Positions 394 to 36,599 of a DNA stretch of 42,114 nt are shown here, in pieces (within the stretch, counting starts at the first letter, position 1; every line of letters starts with the position of its first letter). A program made the translations under genes and the position numbers. Below the pieces are notes generated by a model, which was given only the letters and a program-made list of their open reading frames with translations, was not told the DNA's origin and made no database searches. This stretch comes from Reclinomonas americana ATCC 50394 (taxonomy: Eukaryota), in NCBI GenBank assembly GCA_048213135.1, contig PS015828.1:1-42114 (forward strand), written 5' to 3'.

Positions 394-3300
394 TCAGGCG
401 GCGATCGAGCAGTCGGCACCCTTCCACCCGGCATTGCAAATGCAGGCACCAGATCCCGAGCAGCGACCACGACCTGTGAGACAGCAGATGCAGTGAGCGT
501 CGCAAAGGGATAAAGAGAAGAGAGAAGTAGGTAACCGTTGCAGGACTCGACAGGGCGGCAACCACCTGTTTGTTGTGTCTCACATCAGTGCACTCAGGAG
601 ACAATCGCGTACGGCTGGTGCAGACGCAACAGTTGGGGCCACCGATACCCGCGTAACAGCGGCAGCGACCAGCCACGCATTGGCTGCACATAATCCCAAC
701 TATATTATGAGAAGCAAAAGCGAGTGAAGAATGAACTTACTACGCACCCACTGCAAAGAGCAAGTCACGAATAAAGTCAGCAGATGGAAAACACTCGACG
801 ACAGCACATCAGTCGCGCGGGGAACGCACTTGTACAAACTCGGGTTCGCACTCCACGGTCCATTGCACTGCGGGTCGCTGGTGCACACAGCCGGCGAAAC
901 AATCACCGACTCGTCACGGGGAACAACAAACACATCGCGACTGGCGACGATCGCGGAGCCCGATGGCGCGGCGTAGGCTTGCACACGGTTCAGTGTCTTG
1001 AACGTGATGCGCAATTCTTGCTCTGTGCGAGAAAAAGAGAGAGAGGGAGCGTGTGTTTTTGAGTTCCACAGAAGAGCAGCGACCTCCTCTTCCTTTCCCT
1101 TCCCACTTAAACCTGTGACCTCCACGACATTGTAGCCCTCCACGTCCGTGCGCAGATGCTGGAACCACGGGTTAGCTCCCCATGCGCTGTACAGCGAGGT
1201 TAGCTGCACCAGAGAAGCTGCAGCAGATTGACAAGCGATTATTACTATCAAAGAGTGAGAGCACGACCATGATTTCTTCACGTCACGCACCGAACGAGGC
1301 GCTCGTCTTGATGCCGGCGAGCTGCACAGATGTCGAATCAGACGATCGACATTTCCAACACAAAACGCAAAGCGCGCTATCGCAATCGACAACGTACCAC
1401 TGCATCGGTCGTAGTATCAAGCACTGCACCGGGCACCGAGTACGACAGCTTGTTGCGCAGCTGCGGTCGGATTGTATCGGCCAGCTGATCGGCATTCACT
1501 GGCTTGCGACCACTGGTCTGTATGGAGGAATTCGCAAACAACACACGTGTGAGAAAGTCGCGGGTGTGTAGTACTCAGACGCAGATCAGCCACTTCCATC
1601 TTCCTCAAATTCCCTGGTGATCTCTAAGTGGTCAATCTCCGACGAACTAGCTAACCGGCAACCACCTCTTGTGCTCTCTTGCCATCACGGTTTCCGTCCA
1701 CCAGTCTTCATCACCATTTTCAAATTAGAGACGCAACAAAGTCAAACATTGGCACAACCAGCTTGATGTTGCCTACGTTGGGAACCGGAACAGTGAACGA
1801 GAAAGACACCAACGGCAACAGGGACAATGGAGCCGTTGCATCGAGGCCAGAGGCGCGGGAAGTACTGCTCATGCCGGGCGTAACAAATTCGACGCCCACT
1901 GCCGACACCGACGGATCCGTGCCCTTGCTGAAGTCGTCATACAGCTGCACGCGACGGAGAAAGAGACAGAGAAAGAAGTGAGGAGACTTGAGACGAGAAT
2001 AGTCGAGATCTACACCAGAGCGTGGGCGCAACGCGAGATGCCACTGCAGAGTGCAAGTCTCCAGTAAACACCACCAGGTTCTTCACACCCGTCCGGCGCA
2101 CGTGACCGAGAATCTCGGCACGCTCAGTCGCATAGCCGTCCCAACCGTCTGCAAGACAGAACAGACAATACAACGTGAACGCGACGCCGCAGGGCGTCAT
2201 AGACGTGAGTACGCGAGACTGCACTGCGATTGCATGCAGCAGCACTTGTTCATCACAAACCTGCCGAAAACAGGAACGTCTTCAAGTACGGTCCAAGAGT
2301 GGCTTTCTGGCCAGTGGCAGCGAGCGCCTGCGAGTTGCTCTTGTTCTGACGAATGTCGGGCTCGATGTAGCCGAACGCAATCGCATTCGCCGCAGCCTGG
2401 GCCTTTTGCGTCGGTGCAGCAGCGGCCGCGTTGAAGGCTCCCACCGCCACTCCCGCCTGCGTTGCAGTCAGACCGGCAGCGACGGCAGCAGCCGTTGCAT
2501 CGCCGCCAGTCGCCACAGCCGTCGCAATCGCTCCAGCTGCTGCCGCGGCCGTGCTCTGTGTGGCACCGGCAAATCTAGCGGCGACAATCGCCGCTGCCAC
2601 CGGCTCCGGCAGCATAAGTGCCGCTGCAGTGTTGGCGATGGACGTGGTAAGCGTCGGCACACTCTGCAATGCCACCAGTGTGGCCACTGCACGCAGGGCG
2701 TTGATCTCATTGCGCGCCACGATGACTTCGTTTCCCCACAGACGCCAGATGGCAGACGAGTTGGAGAGCTGCGACTTGAGCCACTCGCGCTGCGGCTTGC
2801 CGAGCATGGTAGTGAGCGCGAGCGGATCGTTGGGGTTGATCGTCGTCGCCTTCGCAATCAATGCAGCTTCAGCAGCGGCGCGCTGCGTGTCGTCAACAAA
2901 ATTTCTGGAACCAACGGGACCAATTTCCTGTCCAGTGAGCGGGTTGATGGTTGTCTCCGGAATGGTCTGCACAAGCACAGTGCTGTGAGATGGAGATATT
3001 GATGAAAAAGATGTGATGATTTGGTGTAGCGACGCACGTGATCCGTGCGGTAGACACGCGAGTCGGTGACAAAGAGGTGAGCGAGATTGCCGACTGCACG
3101 TTTGAAGCGGAGTGAGAAGGAGAGGCTTTCAACGCAGCATGCAGGAGAGGTGCGTACGCAACACAAAAAGTCGCGATAGATGCGCACAACGTCGTAGCTG
3201 TCGGGATTGCTGGTGTCAAGCACAACATCGGCCGGCGTGAACTCGAACCAGGCGGTGGAAGCCGAGCGGCGGCGTTGAGGCACAGCTGGGTTGGCATTCG

Positions 3301-4800
3301 TGTTGGTATCGTGATCCATCCATGAATCGCTTGTGAACTCATGGTCGTCCCAGCTGGAAGGGCGAACAAGAACAGAGAGCACTGAGGATACAACTCTGTC
3401 TCGGCTAAATGATCCACTTGCCACAACGCAACATGGTAATGAACGGGAAGTATTCGTGGGCTCGTTGCAATCGTGGATCAGTACGATACGTGGCGTAGAG
3501 AGTTCGATAATCTTCGAGTGTGTCGCTGTATGTGGAGGAGAAGGTCAGGGAAGCTGCATAGCGGAGCATATGAACGACACAACGACAGACGCACGCGCGG
3601 TACGGGTTGGTGCCGTCATCGTCAACTAGGTCGCCAACGCTATTTGGCAGCAAGAAAGGCGGGTGTGCAGCTTCGCGAGTGGGACTCTGAGACACGATCG
3701 CAGGTGGTCAGTGGAGTAAGAGGGCAGATTTCAGATGATCGTATCAAGTAGCAACAAACCGGTGTGGGGCCCACCGCCGGACTACAATCACAAGAACAAT
3801 GGCGTAAACACAACGAAGGGAGCGTGAGTCGCACTCCTTTTTCGATCGGTGCAGCCTCCACACAAATTACTGCACTATATCTTCGCAACGTTTCGTAAAT
3901 GTAATCGCCCAGATGCAGCACAAAGTCCACATCGCGCTCATTGTCGACCAGATCAGTGTAGCCTCCCCAGTGATTGCGAGACCAGTTCTGGCACGCAATC
4001 GTGGCGATCTTCAGCCGCGCCACGGAGTTCGAGCCGGGCGGCGGGAAGGTCTTGAAGCGACCGACCTGTGCGTGGTGCAGAGTGAGGCGTCGTCGCTACT
4101 ATACCTACATCACCGACCGCTTGCAACATTGACGACTGAAACGCACTCGAGAGAACACATTTCCAGCCTGGAACTGGTAGTAGTAGGTGGTGTTGGGCTG
4201 CAGATCGGTGACCTTCTGTCGCGCAGTCATGTAGAAAGAACTCGACGCCGTGACTTTGCGGTCGACAACAAACGGGCCGACAAGCGCAGCACTGCACACA
4301 CACACACAGAGAATGTAAGCAACACCAACAAAAAGTGCACTGACTGCCACAGTCGCAACTTGCTGTCCATTTTGGCACCGTTGCCAGCGATGCTGCTCAC
4401 ACGCAGCGAAATGGCCACACTGGAAACGGAGTCGGTGGGCAGTGGACCTGTAGAGGGCGCATCGAGAGGCAACGCGCGTGTCCACAAGACGACACTGTTG
4501 TGGGTGGGATCGCCCGAGGCCACACTTTGCGGGAACTGCAGCAGGGACATGCATCAAATAATGAAGGAGTGTGTGCATTGACGCTTGTCTGCAACGTTCA
4601 CCTGCCAGTTGCTGCCAGTGGCGTCGGGAGTCGGTGGTGGCGGTGGCGGCGGGGGCGGCGGTGGCGGCGCCGTGTCGGTGCACAGAGCGCCAAAGCGGCC
4701 AGTGGCACAGCTGCCGCAGTTGGTACCGGCAAAGGGGAATGGGCACTTCACGCACGACGACAGTGAGCAAAAGAGAATTTCTCCGAAAAGTACATACACA

Positions 4801-4856
<56 letters not shown>

Positions 4857-5194
4857 ACACACACACTACGACGTACGTACTACTACTACACACACGACAC
4901 CGACCACGACGTCGACGTACGTACGACGGTCGGTACGGTCGGACGACGACACGTACTAGTNNNNNNNNNNNNNNNNNNNNNNNNNNNNNNNNNNNNNNNN
5001 NNNNNNNNNNNNNNNNNNNNNNNNNNNNNNNNNNNNNNNNNNNNNNNNNNNNNNNNNNNNNNNNNNNNNNNNNNNNNNNNNNNNNNNNNNNNNNNNNNNG
5101 TAACGGGAACGGTAACGGGTACGACGTTACACGACGTACGACGAGACGTACGAGACGAAGAAGTAAGTTACTACGTAACTAACGTACTACACAC

Positions 5195-5254
<60 letters not shown>

Positions 5255-5621
5255 GCAACATAGCAAGTACCGTCATTCAAGCACAGACCACGACCACTGC
5301 AGGTGACAGCGTCGGTGCAAGCAACTGGATTCTGCACGTACTGATCGGGGCCTTGACCGCAGAACGGATGGCCGGTCTTCTTGTAGTTCGGGGCGCAGAC
5401 TTCGCAGTTGGCGCCGCGATACTGGTGGAAAAAAGGGAGCTAAGCACGACGGAAAAATACACATGTACAGCGCGGGGAGAGGTGATGCACCTGAATGTTG
5501 CAGACGCAAGCACCGTTGACACAATTTCCGCCAGGCTGGCTACACTGCGCACCACTAGTGCACGCACCACCTGGGAGAGAGAGAGAGGAGGGTGAGGGTG
5601 GGCGAGTCGGCCGTCATGTGC

Positions 5622-5660
<39 letters not shown>

Positions 5661-5888
5661 GCACCTCCACTCTGCGCGCTGACGTGTGTCACGACCAGCA
5701 ACACCAAGAGAGTCGCACTGCATGCACACAACAAGCACGATGAGAACAGTAAAAGCAAGCGACGACAGGAGTTCGAGGGCACGCGCAGCGCACGTTCGCA
5801 CCCTGTGAAAAACAATATTCAGTTGGAGACACACACACGCACAGTTAAGCGCCAACAAAAACGCACAGAGAATCACACGGCTACACAT
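394..5888 (-). CDS. phoD: Secreted alkaline phosphatase D (PhoD) with N-terminal and C-terminal EGF/laminin-EGF repeats; multi-exon, spans a gap
   Basis: Spliced translation: signal peptide MCSRVILCATLLVLLVVTHVSAQ, Cys-rich EGF repeats (CSQPGGNCVNGACVCNIQYRGANCEVC) and a poly-Pro linker. PhoD motifs follow: FPQSVASGDP..VVLWTR, HLGDYIYE, IWDDHE, TMLGKPQREWL, DGWDGY, VFTGDLHS, VEFVTPGMSS, ANPWFQHLRTDVEGYNVVEVT. It ends in EGF repeats CVAGRCRCYAGIGGPNC and CNGRGRCSGSGACICNAGWKGADCS, with TGA at 394-396. Confidence 0.88.
4803..5248. repeat. (CT)n microsatellites flanking an assembly gap (N 4961-5098)
   Basis: Visible directly. Confidence 0.9.
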
Positions 5889-6262: not shown

Positions 6263-9813
<3,551 letters not shown>

Positions 9814-20200: not shown

Positions 20201-23200
20201 CAGATGGTGGCACCGGCCACTGAAGGTGCGTTGCAAATCCGCAGGTCATGTCTCTGTGACGTAGCCCTTGTGTCGTAACACTTTTTGTGTGGGTGCATCA
20301 GGCCTGTTCGATCGCGCCTTCTGGGAGGACAAGGATATGGTGGTGAATGCACTGGACAACATCCAGGCTCGCCTGTACGTCGACGACCGCTGCGTGCAGT
20401 TCCGCAAGCCGCTCGTTGAGGCCGGCACGGAGGCCGTCAAGTGCAACTGGTGTGTGCATGTATTTTCCTGATGTTTTTCCGTTATCCTTCGCTCACTAAG
20501 CCTTGGTGTGCACAGCTGTGTGAGTACACTGGCTGTTTGGGAGTGTGTCCAGCGTGTCGTGGCTGGCAGTGTCTCACACCACGTTTTTGTGTCCGCTGTA
20601 CAGATTGTGATTCCGGGCTTCTCGGTCAACTACGGCTTCCATCGCGAGATTGACCCGCCAAAGGCCAAGAAGTGCACTGTGACCAACTTCCCTGTGCGTA
20701 ACTTGCTTGTGTAGGTGTGTAACTTGATTGTGCGTTGCATTCTGACCTTCGGTGTTGTCTTGTGCGCAGTACGTGCGTCATTGAATAACCCTTGTACCTT
20801 TATTACCAAGCGAATGACTCACGTTTGTTTTTTCCCCTCCTTGCTCTTGATTGCATACAGCTGGTGAGTTGGCCCATGTGTTGCGCGATGGTCCTGTCAC
20901 GTGTTGCTTAGTTAACCCTTCGAATCGCAGATCGAGCACTGCATCCAGTACGCGCGCGAGATCACGTTCCAGAAGCTGTTTGTGGACTGCCCGGAGGCTG
21001 TGGCCGAGTACCGCAACAACCCGCAGGCCTTCCTGGACAAGGTCAAGGAGATGCCGGAGACGGAGAAAGTCGATGTTGCGTTGAGGCGATCTGTATGTCG
21101 GAGTCGACGGGAAGATACTGATGTGGTGGTGCGTCGCAGGTTGCCCGCAAGCTGGCTGGCATTCTGAGCGCCGAGAACCGCTGCGCCTCTCTGGAGGACT
21201 GCGTGGCGTGGGCGCGCAACCTGTACGAGGAGGAGTTTGTGCACTCGGCGTTCCAGTGGCACTCGCTGTACCCTCGTGATGCCAAGAACCGCGACGGTGA
21301 GTCTTGTGCCGGCATTGCCTGCCATGTGAGTTGATGACTTGCTGACTCGGGGCATTATTGCAGGCACGCCGTTCTGGGGTGGCGTCAAGACTTACCCGAC
21401 GGAACAGCGATTCGACCCGGCAAACCCGCTGCACGTGCAGTTCCTGGTGCGCGACAATGTATTGTTGGCTTGTTGCAGTTGCCCTGCTCATCCCCGGTTG
21501 GTGCACAGGTGACGGCGACTGCGCTGCGCGCCAAGACTCTCGGCATTGCTGTGCCGTCGGAGTTCCGTCTGGATAGCCGCCGTGGAAAGGCGCTGGTGCT
21601 GGAGATCGCCTCGCGCGTCAACGTGAAGGCGTTCAGCAACTCGGCGGTTTGTAAAGCGTGTGGTGGTGGCGCGTGTGTCGAGTTCCTCATACCGTTGGTG
21701 AATGCGATGAGCAGAAGGCATCGACCGACGGTGAGGACGAGTCGAACGTGTCGCTGGTGCAGGAGTTCGACCCGAACGCCGTGCTGAGCTCGCTCCCGTC
21801 GCCGAGCGACATCTCGCCGTCGGTGACCGCCGATGAGTTCGAGAAGGACAACGACCTCAACTACCACGTGGACTTCCTGATGGCCGTGTCCAACATTCGT
21901 GCCATCATGTACCGCATCGACACGGTGGACCGCCTGAAGATCAAGCTCGTTGCCGGTCGTGTGATTCCGGCCATTGTGACGAGCACGGCTCTGATCTGCG
22001 GCTACGCGAGCTTTGAGATGCTGAAGGTGTGTGTGGATTTTCGGATGAGATTGCACTGAACTTGTCGGTTGGCTGACTGCTGGGTGCAGATCTGGTCTGG
22101 CCGGCCAAACTCGGCGATTCGCGAGTCGACGGTCAACCTCGGCACGCTGATGTTCACCGTGCAGGAGCCGATGGAGGCGCCGAAGGTGAGAGTGTCTATT
22201 GTGTGTGCCTGCTTCCTTCGGAGCGGTAGGGTGATGACTGATTGACGTGCTTTGTTCAACGTACAGTGGAGCTACAAGGGTGCGAGTGGCGACCACACGT
22301 TCACGCTGTGGGACAGCGTGCATGTGGACGCGCGTGGTCTGACGCTGAAGCAGGTTTGTCGTTGCTGTTGCTCTCCTCGCTGTTGCTCCTTGTCTCTGTC
22401 GCTCTCCTCGCTGTTGCTCTGTGTCTCTATCGCTCTCTTCGCTGCTGCTCTGTGTCTCTGTCGCTCTCTTCGCTGCTGCTCTGTGTCTCTGTCACACTCC
22501 TCGCGGTTACTCTGTGTCTTGTGTCGCTCTCCTCGCTGCTGCTCTGTGTCTGTGTCGCTCTCCTCGCTGTTGCTCCGTGTCTCTGTCGCTCTTCTCGCGG
22601 TTGCTCTGTGTCTCTGTCGCCCTTCTCGCTGTTGCTCTGTGTCTGTGTCGCTCTCCTTGCGGTTGCTCTGTGTCTATCGCTCTCTTCGCGGGTGCTCTGT
22701 GTCTCTGTCGCTCTCTTCGCTGTTGCATTGTGTCTGTCGCTCTTCTCGCTGTTGCTCTGTGTCTGTGTCGCTCTCCTTGCAGTTGCTCCGTGTCTCTGTC
22801 GCTCTCCTCGCTGGGCGTACTGCACACAGGCGTCCTCACCAATGCTATTCATTCCTGGCAGTTCTTGGACAAGATGAAGGCGGAGCAGGAGCTGAACATC
22901 GAGACAATCTCGGTGGTGCGACAGGACTACGTGGTGTGGTTTGGCGCTCGCGGGGCGCTGGACAAGCCGCTGCTTGAGCTCGTGGAGAATATCGTGAAGA
23001 AGAACAAGCTGCACGTGGACCCGTCTGGCATTATCGAGTTCCTGGTGTCGGCACCGTTGCGTAGTGGCCGTCTGCACCGCGCTTGGTGAATCGATTTTGT
23101 CTCACTCACGCGCGCGTGGTGATTTTACTGCAGTGATGGCTCCGTGGTGAAGAAGCTGGATCAGGAGGGCAAGGAGTACGAGGAGGACGGACCGGAGCAT

Positions 23201-29500: not shown

Positions 29501-31725
29501 GGTTGGCTCGAGTAGCTTTCCGCAACTCTTCGATGCCTTCACGAAGAGGTCGCATGCAGTCCTCTCGCTGCATCACCAAAGGAAGAAGAGCAAAGGAGAA
29601 CGGTACCATTTTTGAGAAACCGCAACAACACACAAAGGCGTGAACAATCACATTACAACTGACCATGACGTAGAATTGCAATGCCAAGTACTGGTCAATC
29701 GACTCTAGTTTGTGCGACGTGGTGATGTTGGTGTTGAGGGCCGCAGCGACTTGATCCAAGCGGCGGTTGTCAATGAGTTCCTCCAGCTCGGGGAAAAGTG
29801 GCACCGTTCGAAACTCCTCTGCTCCACGACTCACGGTGAGTACGGCAAGGAGCGTGGCACACCGCCTATGAATTCGCACTCACCAGTGAGGCCGTCGAGT
29901 GAGGCCGGCTGATCTGCGCCTGTCGCCTGCCTGGCGTTTGGTTGTCGACGAGCTCGCTGCTGCCGCAGAACTTCCTCCGCAGCATCTCGGGCCGCAAACA
30001 ACCGATCACTGACCGCGATGATAGCATCCATCGTGACAGCAGACTGTCCGACCCTACTTGCGCTGGAGTCCGTCAGCCAGTCTATCAATCTTCGAATGCT
30101 GTCGACGGGAATCAACTCCAGAGGGTTTTCAACACGCCCAAAAACGGCGACATACAGCCGAAGCAGGTGGAACAACAATTGGAAGTCACTGACTTGCATC
30201 TCGTTGCTCTCAATAGCGTCCTGTGTTGCACAAATTCCACACGCACACATGTACTCAGCATTGCATCGACCGACTCGTAGCTAAGTGTTGACTCACCTGC
30301 AAATACAGCCGGATGCTCTGAAGGCGACCGGTAAACTTGCGGCATGCCCACAATGCATGCACCAGCTTGATACATGCATGTTGTTGGTAAGTTGACGCCT
30401 CCAGCAGGAGAGGAACGATCTCCACCAGCCGGTCGAAATCCTCGTCGGAAGGGCAGGCACTGCCAGCGAAATTCGCCTCCATTGCCGACATGAACTCGGG
30501 CGCCGTCAGATCGAGTATCACCTCGTTCGCGACGGAAGAAGTGAGCGCAGCATTTGATGCGCCTGCTTTCACCCGCTTGAAACAGTCTCGAAGACGAACG
30601 GCGGGTGGCATTGGACCTGGAGGGAGGAGAGCTAACGTGAGCACACCACATGGCAGTCGCAGTGGCGTGCTTCACAACGAACTCACGTGCTGGCTTTCGC
30701 TGCTTCTCAGACGGAGAGGACTTTGAAGCCGAGGTCGGAGGAGATCGAGCAGAGGACGCTGAGACGGAGGAGGCGTGTTGAGAAACAAGGCACCCGATGC
30801 ACGGACGGCATGGTAGTCACCTTGAGCTCGAGAGGAAGCAGCCGCAGGGGGGCTCTTCGCGCTCCCATGAGCGCGCGGTGTGCGTGGGTCTGCATGTTGT
30901 GTGAGTGACGATAATGCATTGTGAACATTGTGTGTCAACACACCTGCTGACGAGCTGCCGACCTGCTTGCGAGGTTTCTTGTGGGCATGAGTGGCCGGGG
31001 GAGCAGCAGCGGTGGCCTGCTGCGCATGCGATGCAGGCGGTTTCGCACGCTGAGAAACTTTGGAGGATCCGGACGCTGCAGGTGCATTCCCCACGCTGGG
31101 TTCTGCTCGTCGCCGTCAGCGAGAACACAGCGGTAGAAGGGCGCAGTGAGCACCCTGAACCTCCCACACACACGATATCAACGATCGGGAAGAATGAGAC
31201 GAATGAACTCACTTTTGCGAACAGGACCGGCGGTGGGTATTGGGGGACGTGACGACGATGCACTCGCTCCCACGTTTCCCGATGCACCGCCGCCGGCTGC
31301 AGCGGTGGCAGTCGGGGTCGCTGTGTTGGTGGCACGCACGTTCACAGTCTGCGTGAGCCTGCCCTTCTCCAGCGCCTCCGCCACCAAGCCAGCGAATACC
31401 GGCTTACTGAGGACAGGAAGTGCGCGCGCACTCGCACCCTGCGCAGCAATATCCTGCATGGTTAGTGCGCCGAGTACCGTAGTAAAACACTTGGCGAGCG
31501 CGATGCAATCGCAACAGCATCGTCGTCTTGGCCAATCCTCATCTGAAACGCGTCATAACGGGAATGCTTCGCGACGTGGTCGCGCAACGATTGCCACTCT
31601 GCAGCTGCGGCACTTGCTGTTGCTGCGCTGTCGTCGAGCTCCTTGCGCCAAGGCGGTATACCAACATCGCACTCAAAGTACACCGTGATGGTGGCACGCG
31701 TGGTGCCACCGCTCCCAGAGGCCAT
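23570..31725 (-). CDS. ZNFX1: ZNFX1-like SF1 (Upf1-type) RNA helicase with NF-X1 zinc fingers, RING-like domain and C-terminal RZ finger
   Basis: FRTVPLFPELEEL..QYLALQFYVMREDCMRPLREGI; Walker A IQGPPGTGKTYIG; CYTNHAIDQFLE; VIVEEAAE; LIGDHKQLRP; QHRMRPEIS; TIDDYQGEENDIILLSLVRSN; NRICVALSRAR. These are followed by repeated CGH-type NF-X1 fingers, RING-like CRIC..DCHHVFE..KCPSCR and RZ GHWFKCPNGHPYFIGECGGAMQTSRCPDCGATVGG. The start codon at 31725 is tentative. Confidence 0.92.
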
Positions 31726-33457: not shown

Positions 33458-36400
33458 TTACAGCACCGGCGTGACGGCGACAGCCATGGACTCCTGTGCG
33501 TGACTGGGTGAGAATAGCGTGCGTGAGCAGGAGTTGATGTGGCTGTTTGCGCAACGATGGCACACTCGTCGGTTCCGCGCTGTGGCACAATGTGAGTCAT
33601 GAAGCGAAAGACAAGGAGAGACAAAAAAAGGCAGAGTCGACTTACCCGAATGCGGAAGAAACCGTCCTCGCCCCAGGCAGTCTGCGCGAGATGGCAGTGA
33701 GAAGTGGGGGAGCAAGAGGCAGCATGTAAGAGAGAGAGAGAGACAAACCCCTGTGTTGTTGTGGACATTTGCGACGATGAACGCAAAAGAAATGTGAGCA
33801 GACGGGGCATCTTCAGCTGTCTGTCAAGCGAGCAACTCACCCCTGCAATCACACGAGTGAGACATCGAACAACAAGCACACATTGTGGACAAAGAGACAC
33901 TCACCAGCTGTTCTTGACCTTCCAGAACTGCGACGATGACGAGGAGACTCGTGTTAGTCAAGAAGGGAAAAGGATACATGGCGAAGCGAGCAGTGACTAA
34001 ACCTTCACGCCATCGGATGTGGTTCCGTATCCGACGATTACCACGACTGCAAAGCAAAGAGAGAGGAGTAAGAGGAAGGGGGATAGTCATGCAGGCACGA
34101 TGGCACGTCCGCAAACCGTCTGCGCAAATGACGACACGTGAGTGGTGCGCAGCATGTCAATCAATAACGAAAGACGCAACGATTGGTCAGCTGGAACGGG
34201 TTGAAGGTCACCAGGTGCGACACTGCGGTGTGCGAGTACACGCCACCCTGCCAGGCAAGCTTCAGTCCATCAAACGACACACTCTAACCATCGACAACGC
34301 CACACACCTTGTAGTTGTGCAGATCGGGGTACACCTCGAACGAGACAGCAATCGGGCCATTCGCCACCAACTCCTCCATCATGTTCAGCTCCGTGGCCGC
34401 CCCGTAGTAGCCACCAATGTAGTGGTAGTCGCTGTGCAACGGAGCATGTCAGAGGGAGGGAGAGAGTGACGAAAAAAGCGTGGCGAAAGGGAACGAAACG
34501 AGGTCCAGTGCAGGCGCGGGTTGGAGCAGCGCTTCGAGCACGACACCTACAGCCATGGATGGTGTGAGAGGTGACAGAAGCGGAGATCTCTCACATCGTG
34601 CGTCCTACACACACCTCCGTGGCAACATACGGGAAGCAGCTCTCCTCCACGTGTCCGAAGTCGTGGCCGTACTGCGCGGTCGCACGAAGGGAGTGCAGTG
34701 AGCGACGACAAAATCACACAGGGTGACAAGAAACCCGACCTTGCCAGCAGCCAGGTACGGGAAGCCGCCTGCGTCAACACATTTCGTCAGTCTGGTGCAT
34801 TCGGCACAAGAAGAGAGGTGACAACACACACCGTCGCAGCCGTGCGAGTAGACAGAGCACGAGACAATGTTCTGAGTACTGAGGATGACCTACACAAATA
34901 CGCGCGCACGTGCGCACGTGAGCAAAGCACTCAAGTCATACACTTCAAGCAAGGCAGGCAGGCAAACGCACCGTGTTCGTGTTGTTGGAGAGAATGCGCA
35001 GGCGAGCCTCGAGTGTGGCCGCCGACGCAAAGGCGTAGCAACTGCCGCATTGCTGTGTGGTGCACGGTGATGCGCGCGCATGAGCAAGTCAGAGCGGGGG
35101 AGTAAGGGAGGGAGGGAGGGAGGGAAAGAGCGCGACTCACTCCCTGGTTGCTGTTGGCAAGACGAGAAAAAGAAGCAGATGAGCTCTCAGCGTGAGAGAG
35201 ACAGCAATCGCGCGACAGGCACGCACCGGATGGGCGACACGTAGCTCACCTGTACAAAATAACACAATCAGCACGTGAGAGACTGCCATAGCACCCCCTG
35301 CATTTCGTGTGCATCACGCAACTCCATTGACATTGGTCCAGTCCCACGAGTCCGGCAGCGTCGACGACAGCGACGTGGCCGCGTTCTCCGCCAACTCCGG
35401 CTTCTGCGGCTTGGTGACAGCGGCGGCCAACTCCTGGCGCGCATACGAGCCACCGGCACGGCGCTCCATCTGAACAAGGCAGCGTGGTGAGCTCAAGTCC
35501 ACAGCTGTGATCCGAGTCACGCTTCACGCAACATCGCCAATGGTCAACCCGAGGTGCTCGTCGTAGGTAGTGGCCGTCCACAGGCTCTGCGCCTTGTTGA
35601 TGGCGTCCACAAACTCAAAATCGTGCTCGTACCTATGCACACGCCATGTGAGTCGACGACATGCACGCGCGAGGCATCACGAAACACAACTTGAGCTGGG
35701 CGCGGAGCGGGTCGACCACGGCCAAGTCGAGGCTCGTGCGGAGCGGCACCTTGGGCGTCTCCGGCGCGCTCTGCGTCTTGATGCCAAAGTAGCAGCCCCA
35801 GTTGCCCGGCTGCAAGTGCCACGAGACGAATGAGCGACACAACCAGTGTGTCTTCTTCAAACGGCCTCACCGCATACTGCTCTCCATCGTTATGGTACCA
35901 CCCCGGCAGCGTCTCGGAGCACACAGAGGTCACATGGCCACTCGGATCGGTCACCCACTTGGAGAAGGCGAAGAAACGACGACCGCCGACCTTGACTGCA
36001 CTCACGCTTGAGAACAATGACGCAAAACACAATGACAAGCGAGAAAACAAACCGTCAAACGACCTGTCATGAGGGGGTTTACATAACAACAGAAGGTGAT
36101 TAGTGAGTGTGCAGTGCGCGCCTGCTTTTGTTACACGAAACATGGAATAAATCATGGTCCAGAAGCCCTGATTGCCAGCACTGTCTGTGACCTTGTCGGG
36201 GTAATCCAGTGTGACTGTGTACGTGTTCTCCACCTATTGTACACGCATCCACTGAGCACACACACAGTGGAGAAGAACAAACAAGCGCGCGCGCAACAGT
36301 GAAGGGATTGGTGCAGTTGATGTTGTCACGAGTGAAGCCGGCCGGACCCAAGTGGAAGGTCCACGTGCCACGCACCTGTGACACGCGTGCACAGTGAGTT

Positions 36401-36599
36401 GCAGTCTGTGAGAGAGACAGACAAAGAGAGACGCAACGTCCTCGTACATGCAGTTTGCGGGGGTCTGTGACTGCGTGTGTGAGCGAAAAAGATGATCACA
36501 AGTGCGTGCATGACACGCAACATCAGCCACCACTGCATACGGAGCAGCAGCGACACAAAACACCGCGAGGAACACGAGAAGAAGCGCGCAAAACTTCAT
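33458..36599 (-). CDS. CTSC: Cathepsin C (dipeptidyl peptidase I), papain family with exclusion domain
   Basis: Signal peptide, then [129 protein letters not shown]. The model requires microexons. Confidence 0.95.

Follow-up and report, generated by a model that had tools for sequence, protein, structure and literature searches.

A candidate single-nucleotide exon in the leader of an EGF-like/PhoD phosphatase gene of Reclinomonas americana

Results

An intron-dense gene for a predicted secreted phosphatase

The stretch analysed here, referred to as the window, comprises 42,114 nucleotides of Reclinomonas americana ATCC 50394 (assembly GCA_048213135.1, contig PS015828.1, positions 1 to 42,114) and consists of intron-dense eukaryotic DNA with a GC content of ~56% and many CT/GA microsatellites. 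The assembly is a draft, with three N gaps in the window, including 4961-5099 and 6553-6656. A single minus-strand gene runs from 5888 to ~150; its exons code for a hydrophobic leader, EGF-like modules rich in Cys, a PhoD-type phosphatase and a Cys-rich tail. The first EGF-like Cys-rich exon (5491..5570, minus strand) returned Pfam scores below the cut-offs (EB module, 18.5 bits; EGF_2, 13.8 bits). The PhoD-homologous body (913..4628, minus strand), which is interrupted by at least 13 introns, was delineated by spliced alignment to 10 bacterial PhoD proteins of 831-861 aa; the alignment is collinear with these proteins and covers residues 38-832 of P0001. Individual exons scored 34.4, 37.3 and 36.8 bits against PF09423 (cut-off 27) and 30.4 bits against PF16655 (PhoD_N, cut-off 30). 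The predicted signal peptide, the EGF-like Cys-rich modules and the PhoD-type phosphatase are best explained by a product that acts as a secreted or surface enzyme.

All 57 matches to the 235-aa PhoD exon were bacterial or metagenomic, with no eukaryotic relative among them, and the top named match, from Chitinimonas, reached 55% over the exon, including an Ala-rich insert. A metagenome scan for relatives gave 561 pattern matches, 0 of which encode a relative, and no look-alike of this stretch was found among the other indexed DNA stretches. The PhoD body is possibly of bacterial origin, with subsequent invasion by at least 13 introns. Two further features of the region were recorded. The N gap at 4961-5099 separates the second EGF-like exon from the next Cys-rich one, and an exon may be missing there; a 77-nt direct repeat, 97% identical (4-80 and 6950-7026, spacing 6946 nt), flanks the PhoD gene, its left copy touching the window edge.

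A lone G between two splice sites in the leader

Read on the minus strand, the coding part of exon 1 (5867..5888) consists of seven codons, from the start codon at 5888-5886, which is the first ATG following an in-frame stop, and of the T that opens a split Cys codon. A T|GTGCGT donor at 5866 opens a 64-nt intron 1 (5803..5866), which carries a CTGAA branch-like motif at 5818-5822 and whose 3' end at 5803 reads ...TTTTTCACAG (CACAG). A lone G at 5802, directly bounded by AG and GT (CACAG|G|GTGCGA, 5807-5796), is the proposed one-nucleotide exon; from the logic of the frame it would supply the second base of that Cys codon, T|G|T. It is followed by the G|GTGCGA donor at 5801 of an 84-nt intron 2 (5718..5801), with a CTCAT branch-like motif at 5740-5744 and a 3' end at 5718 reading ...GCATGCAG (TGCAG), after which the sequence continues with T GCG ACT. 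Both introns passed our strict signal rules, and their branch-like words lie 16 and 23 nt from the 3' ends. The 53-nt exon 3 (5665..5717) encodes the remaining hydrophobic core and the likely signal-peptide cleavage region, and is followed by a 94-nt intron 3 (5571..5664, G|GTGCGT ... CCCAG), also a strict sense-strand candidate, whose frame fits the next Cys-rich exon.

The first-pass annotation of this stretch had proposed G 5802 as an exon, and a fresh reading of the minus strand found its letters and coordinates exactly as described. The same reading reproduced the leader of 23 residues that results from the T|G|T join and bore out the statement that, without G 5802, the 5866 donor and the 5718 acceptor are out of frame, since joining them directly shifts the frame and leads to a stop after 11 codons. 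The frame required 5' of the 5801 donor is shut by a TGA at 5821-5819, six codons upstream, without an ATG, and no alternative AG for an exon ending at this donor occurs between 5818 and 5803; use of the 5801 donor therefore implies an exon of exactly one base. G 5802 is the only in-frame two-intron parse through 5866/5803 and 5718. The frame thus needs this base if 5866, 5803, 5801 and 5718 are all used, while 12 single-intron parses of the 5' end are likewise in frame and stop-free. By eye, the spliced leader has an Arg at position 4, a 13-residue hydrophobic core and V-S-A before Gln, features for which the leaders of rival parses qualify too.

Three other descriptions of the site were considered and set aside. 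A zero-nucleotide recursive splice site does not fit, as one G separates AG from GT at 5802. Neither does a stwintron at 5718..5866: the genomic sequence gives both introns an intact GT, branch-like motif and CAG of their own, and no other canonical decomposition of 5718..5866 gives an identical mRNA. Finally, neither of the introns 1 and 2 is a copy of the other (alignment score -5, versus -13.5 for shuffles, sd 3.8).

Calibration on introns fixed by homology

A signal peptide tolerates nearly any hydrophobic sequence, so protein logic cannot choose between these parses, and we therefore calibrated the site on the window's own introns. A protein-to-genome spliced aligner, written for this analysis, fixed 55 introns: 13 in the PhoD gene, 19 in a gene for an E1 ubiquitin-activating enzyme and 23 in a cathepsin C gene. 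Ten of the PhoD introns were found in 10/10 alignments, one in 9, one in 5 (1112-1023) and one in 2 (3594-3526). The E1 homologues were four full-length proteins obtained with a representative search (a word-based search with the E1 ORF gave none); 10 introns were placed in 4/4 alignments, four in 3, one in 2 and one in 1 (21075-21139, frame-required), and three further introns came from manual splitting of one aligned two-residue gap. For cathepsin C, 18 introns were supported by 6/6 alignments, three by 5 and two by 4. This reference set of 55 is partly weak, namely at 1112-1023, 3594-3526, 21075-21139 and the three split-derived introns.

The validated introns are short and uniform: 53/55 measure 57-90 nt, the remaining two 112 and 220 nt, and none falls between 113 and 219 nt. 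Their 3' ends are CAG in 52/55 and TAG in 3/55, and most contain CTSAY-like branch words (CTCAC, CTGAC, CTGAT, CTCAT and similar). Sorted by the last exon base, 32 donors follow G and are varied, GTNNGT-like, with GTGCGT in 8, GTGCGC in 1 and GTGCGA in 0. The other 23 follow A, C or T and comprise GTTGCG (14), GTGCGT (5), GTTTCG (2), GTGAGT (1) and GTTGTG (1). H|GTGCGT, the context of the intron 1 donor, is thus a further regular donor type in the window. The idea that introns arose with a target-site duplication was also examined; a donor-like word stands at the start of the downstream exon in just 2/55 validated introns, and the idea was dropped as not general.

We then asked how well signals and content discriminate. 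The strict signal rules recovered 19/31 of the introns validated at that stage, and across the three genes they returned 43 sense versus 4 antisense candidates; order-3 Markov sequence yields ~0.39 strict candidates per kb. No strict candidate fell entirely within the 3.9-4.3 kb of exon sequence that had been confirmed, the sole match being 21075-21139, which is frame-required. In codon-versus-intron content, exon windows average +16.4 bits (sd 8.7, minimum -8.4, n = 99) and validated introns -23.1 bits (sd 10.8). As 51/96 intron frames are stop-free, an open frame is no evidence for coding. The donor weight matrix (PWM) separates weakly when conditioned on GT (real mean +3.1 versus decoy -3.8 bits), so the assessment was based on class counts, on decoy rates under the strict rules and on content.

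Tiny exons in neighbouring genes

In the cathepsin C gene (~33461-36599, minus strand), the aligner chose three micro-exons, all within 33682-34180, with 6/6 homologues, three labelled transcriptome ORFs. A 3-nt exon, ACG (34119-34117), splits the codon of the catalytic His and the next codon and rebuilds ..TNH.., and two consecutive 2-nt exons, GG and GG (33842-33841 and 33750-33749), rebuild ..KNSWG... Each is flanked by introns of 61-90 nt, splicing directly across them leads to a stop, and solved DPP1 chains align to the exon that follows the ..KNSWG.. micro-exons. In the stretch 20450-20930 of the E1 gene (plus strand), two 3-nt exons, TAC (20770-20772) and CTG (20861-20863), fill a two-residue gap, NFP..IEH: the 237 nt of the aligned gap divide into these exons and three introns (76, 88 and 67 nt), and 3/4 full-length homologues have exactly two residues at this place. 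A possible 4-nt exon, CTGT (20516-20519, plus strand), lies within an aligned gap of 150 nt, which a single intron would also span in frame.

Tiny-exon candidates in the three genes number eight, five of them backed by homology. The contexts of two of these tiny exons, CAG|GG|GTGAGT and CAG|GG|GTTTGT, are nearly identical to CAG|G|GTGCGA at 5802, and the occurrence of tiny exons in the E1 and cathepsin C genes of the same window makes a one-base exon credible in this organism. A second one-nucleotide candidate, at 31439/31437, appeared only when the branch requirement was lifted; it was set aside, as it looks more like the last part of an exon of 16 nt. Near the 3' end of the E1 gene, a 31-nt unit is repeated in tandem over ~500 nt (22304-22857, plus strand), a tract that homologue alignments skip as a long gap.

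Signals and content favour the one-base exon

Measured against this reference, both candidate introns (64 and 84 nt) match the validated set in length, CAG and branch-like motif. The PWM scores are +1.5 for the donor, +4.9 for the acceptor and 5.9 for the branch word of intron 1, and -1.1, +4.5 and 5.7, respectively, for those of intron 2. Content is intron-like in both: -37.6 bits per 84 nt for intron 1 in the ATG frame, and -26.7 bits for intron 2 in frame, or -28.3 bits with the full reference set. Leader exons score low themselves (-2.2 bits per 84 nt for leader exon 3, -8.4 for the cathepsin C leader exon), and the 84 nt of intron 2 lie ~20 bits under these two leader exons and ~45 bits under ordinary exons. 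Among 150 order-3 Markov simulations of the window, 3 contained a strict intron pair with a 1-nt spacer (0.027 per window); the actual sequence has a single such pair, at 5802.

Several observations weigh on the other side. The intron 2 donor, with its PWM score of -1.1, stands near the 10th percentile of real donors. The earlier description of both introns as typical and consensus holds for their lengths, CAG ends and branch-like motifs; the donor hexamer of intron 2, GTGCGA, is itself absent from the validated set. G|GTGCGA with a strict acceptor 55-95 nt downstream occurs three times in the window, and the other two occurrences lie inside coding exons. These intron-like decoys (22280-22353, plus strand, and 10920-10856, minus strand) combine G|GTGCGA, a branch-like word and a CAG at 65-77 nt, so that signals by themselves mislead here and a content check is needed; the decoy at 22280, inside an E1 exon, has a content of +20.9 bits. 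As for H|GTGCGT, 60 such sites occur in the window, and a strict acceptor lies downstream of 17% of them, versus 14.7% for any GT.

Taken together, the two-intron model is the sole GT-AG parse that combines signals and lengths known from the window, intron-like removed sequence and a kept frame. We conclude that a one-base exon, G 5802, between introns of 64 and 84 nt is the best-supported gene model and probably the correct one. The reading put forward by the first-pass annotation is thereby supported, as the unique parse that fits the local signals, the intron-like content and the frame. In a rough likelihood estimate, with the prior for a 1-nt exon set at 0.1-2%, the two-intron model is favoured by at least 30:1 over retention of the 84 nt as the only form, and by many orders of magnitude over a long single intron.

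Alternative models of the 5' end

The best survivor among the alternatives is a mis-modelled 5' end, with another first exon or start codon, an indel in the draft or a decayed, non-functional leader. The draft state of the sequence, with its N gaps, the many microsatellites near the gene and the gap that interrupts the exon following the second EGF-like exon all make such an error conceivable, but we consider it improbable: the PhoD body remains intact, its frame kept through at least 13 introns, no other ATG occurs in any frame on the same strand from 6100 to 5889 (212 nt), and no strict acceptor lies just upstream of ATG 5888, the sole strict donor upstream being at 6352.

An alternative that the earlier claim had overlooked is that only the 64-nt intron is removed and that the 84 nt are coding or mostly retained, which would give a ~51-residue leader with a long hydrophobic stretch, acting as a signal peptide or an anchor. 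Intron 2 has a length of 3n and is stop-free, so that a transcript keeping it stays translatable: the join T|GG TGC... reads on in frame without a stop. A 138-nt exon is, moreover, a priori far commoner than a 1-nt exon, and the strict G|GTGCGA decoys at 22280 (plus strand) and 10920 (minus strand) exist within real exons. Against this, the 84 nt have a content score of -28.3 bits, where the decoy at 22280 has +20.9, and a donor, a branch-like motif, a CAG and a typical length coincide, as happens at ~3e-4 per position outside real introns. We judge this model unlikely, somewhat more so than a mis-modelled 5' end.

In a third model, one long intron runs from a weak donor to the 5718 acceptor, and the strong internal sites are bystanders. 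Four minus-strand donors are available, C|GTTTTT at 5862 (145 nt), T|GTTGGC at 5856 (139 nt), C|GTGTGT at 5838 (121 nt) and T|GTGTCT at 5832 (115 nt), all in frame and each giving a clean leader; two validated introns, of 112 and 220 nt, are also long. The parse from GTTTTT that had been offered earlier as an alternative is present in the sequence, and 11 more single-intron parses exist beside it. However, none of GTTTTT, GTTGGC, GTGTGT and GTGTCT is represented among the 23 validated non-G donors, their PWM scores (-3.0, -3.8, -1.3 and -1.4 for 5862, 5856, 5838 and 5832) fall in the decoy range, lengths of 115-145 nt lie where 0/55 validated introns fall, and the strict sites 5866, 5803 and 5801 would all have to be unused and present by chance, which makes this model very unlikely. 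Least probable of all is an exon 1 left unspliced to 5794 and joined over a single 76-nt intron (C|GTGCGC, 5793-5718) to give a leader with two hydrophobic stretches: the frame is kept and the intron length is typical, but no H|GTGCGC occurs among the 23 validated non-G donors, the PWM score is -0.5, and the added exon sequence 5867-5802 has an intron-like -37.6 bits per 84 nt.

Discussion

The two-intron model with G 5802 at its centre describes a rare gene layout that fits this genome's use of tiny exons. Plants and fungi are known to have exons of a single base, and the candidate at 5802 would add a protist case; among the matches listed in the open-access literature, including those of a micro-exon/protist search, we found no protist nuclear gene with a one-base exon. 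The nuclear genome of the jakobid Andalucia godoyi is described as intron-poor (PMC7050145) and so provides no comparison.

The closest precedent is Arabidopsis APC11, for which a constitutive single-nucleotide exon is reported to be proven by cDNA and by mutation of the base, and whose authors favour intron definition with stepwise, recursive-like intron removal (Guo and Liu 2015, PMC4674806). In both cases one nucleotide stands directly between AG and GT, and stepwise removal of both introns is the proposed route. The APC11 base is described as required for the frame and as missed by annotation (PMC4674806), and the base at 5802 is frame-required if the strong sites are used. The cases differ in that APC11 has a 333-nt upstream flank and encodes a conserved protein (PMC4674806), whereas the candidate has short introns on both sides (64 and 84 nt), falls in a non-conserved signal peptide and is predicted from genomic sequence.

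In plant VPS55 genes, 1-nt micro-exons are reported to be kept across land plants with RNA-seq and RT-PCR support (Yu et al. 2022, PMC8831610). The one-base exon of VPS55 shapes an N-terminal peptide, as the candidate at 5802 would, and the alternative VPS55 transcript given in that report retains a flanking intron (PMC8831610); retention would be possible at 5718..5801 too, which is stop-free and of 3n length. A one-nucleotide exon in Fusarium CYP621A, within a conserved motif, is reported from 20 orthologues with SRA reads and is termed the second reported example by its authors (Nelson and Syed 2026, PMC12940212). The CYP621A base is the middle base of a codon, as the candidate would be, and the report describes it as needed for the phase compatibility of the flanking exons (PMC12940212).

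The arrangement at 5802 also recalls recursive splicing without being an instance of it. At recursive sites the acceptor abuts the donor, the two parts of the intron are removed stepwise, and the ligated junction is re-used as a donor. Zero-nucleotide sites of this kind occur in long introns of Drosophila and vertebrates (cited in PMC4674806). Such sites leave no base in the mRNA and divide introns of great length into parts; at 5802 one base would be kept, and the whole unit measures 149 nt.

How could such an exon be spliced? In the proposed mechanism, the eighth codon (Cys) would be spread over three exons as T | G | T, with G 5802 in the middle, and introns of ~60-90 nt would each be recognised as a unit made of a donor, a CTSAY-like branch motif and a CAG. 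Intron definition is presumed because the introns are short and uniform, and as the intron 2 donor overlaps the intron 1 acceptor, excision of the two introns is probably sequential. Either order would leave a usable site: removal of intron 1 first would give ...CTG|GTGCGA, and removal of intron 2 first ...CACAG|GT.... Upon removal of intron 1, the PWM score of the intron 2 donor shifts from -1.1 to -0.6 bits. Retention of intron 2 would produce a longer, anchor-like leader, although any actual use of this form is pure speculation. From the genomic sequence, we infer that G 5802 is present in the mRNA, that splicing follows such an order and that the leader is cleaved. A broader proposal, which we offer tentatively and hold at slightly less than even chances, is that exons of 1-4 nt are routine in this genome, that they depend on pure intron definition with sequential re-splicing, that they stem from new introns arising beside old ones and are not ancient oddities, and that retention of intron 2 may switch the product between a cleaved leader and a membrane anchor.

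One-base exons have been proven in just a few plant and fungal genes, and gene finders miss them. If confirmed, G 5802 would be a protist case in a non-conserved region, indicating that one-base exons are not limited to constrained motifs. Annotation that is unable to model exons of 1-4 nt will give wrong N-termini and wrong catalytic motifs in this genome; within the window, the cathepsin C catalytic His and ..NSWG.. and the E1 NFP..IEH are at risk. A genome with many tiny exons and uniform introns of 60-90 nt would also be a natural system in which to study sequential, intron-defined splicing.

The PhoD gene itself holds a second candidate micro-exon, TGG (748..750, minus strand), whose presence between a CAG acceptor (751) and a G|GTGCGT donor (747) was confirmed. 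It sits in a strict tandem of a 79-nt intron with an A|GTGCGT donor (829-751) and a 64-nt intron with a G|GTGCGT donor (747-684). The first-pass annotation called it phase-ambiguous, which is not the case, as the phase is settled once donor 829 is used. No homology covers the region of TGG 748-750. AA|TGG|C is in frame, as is the product of skipping TGG within one 146-nt intron, and the norm for intron length is the one guide that makes inclusion of TGG likely.
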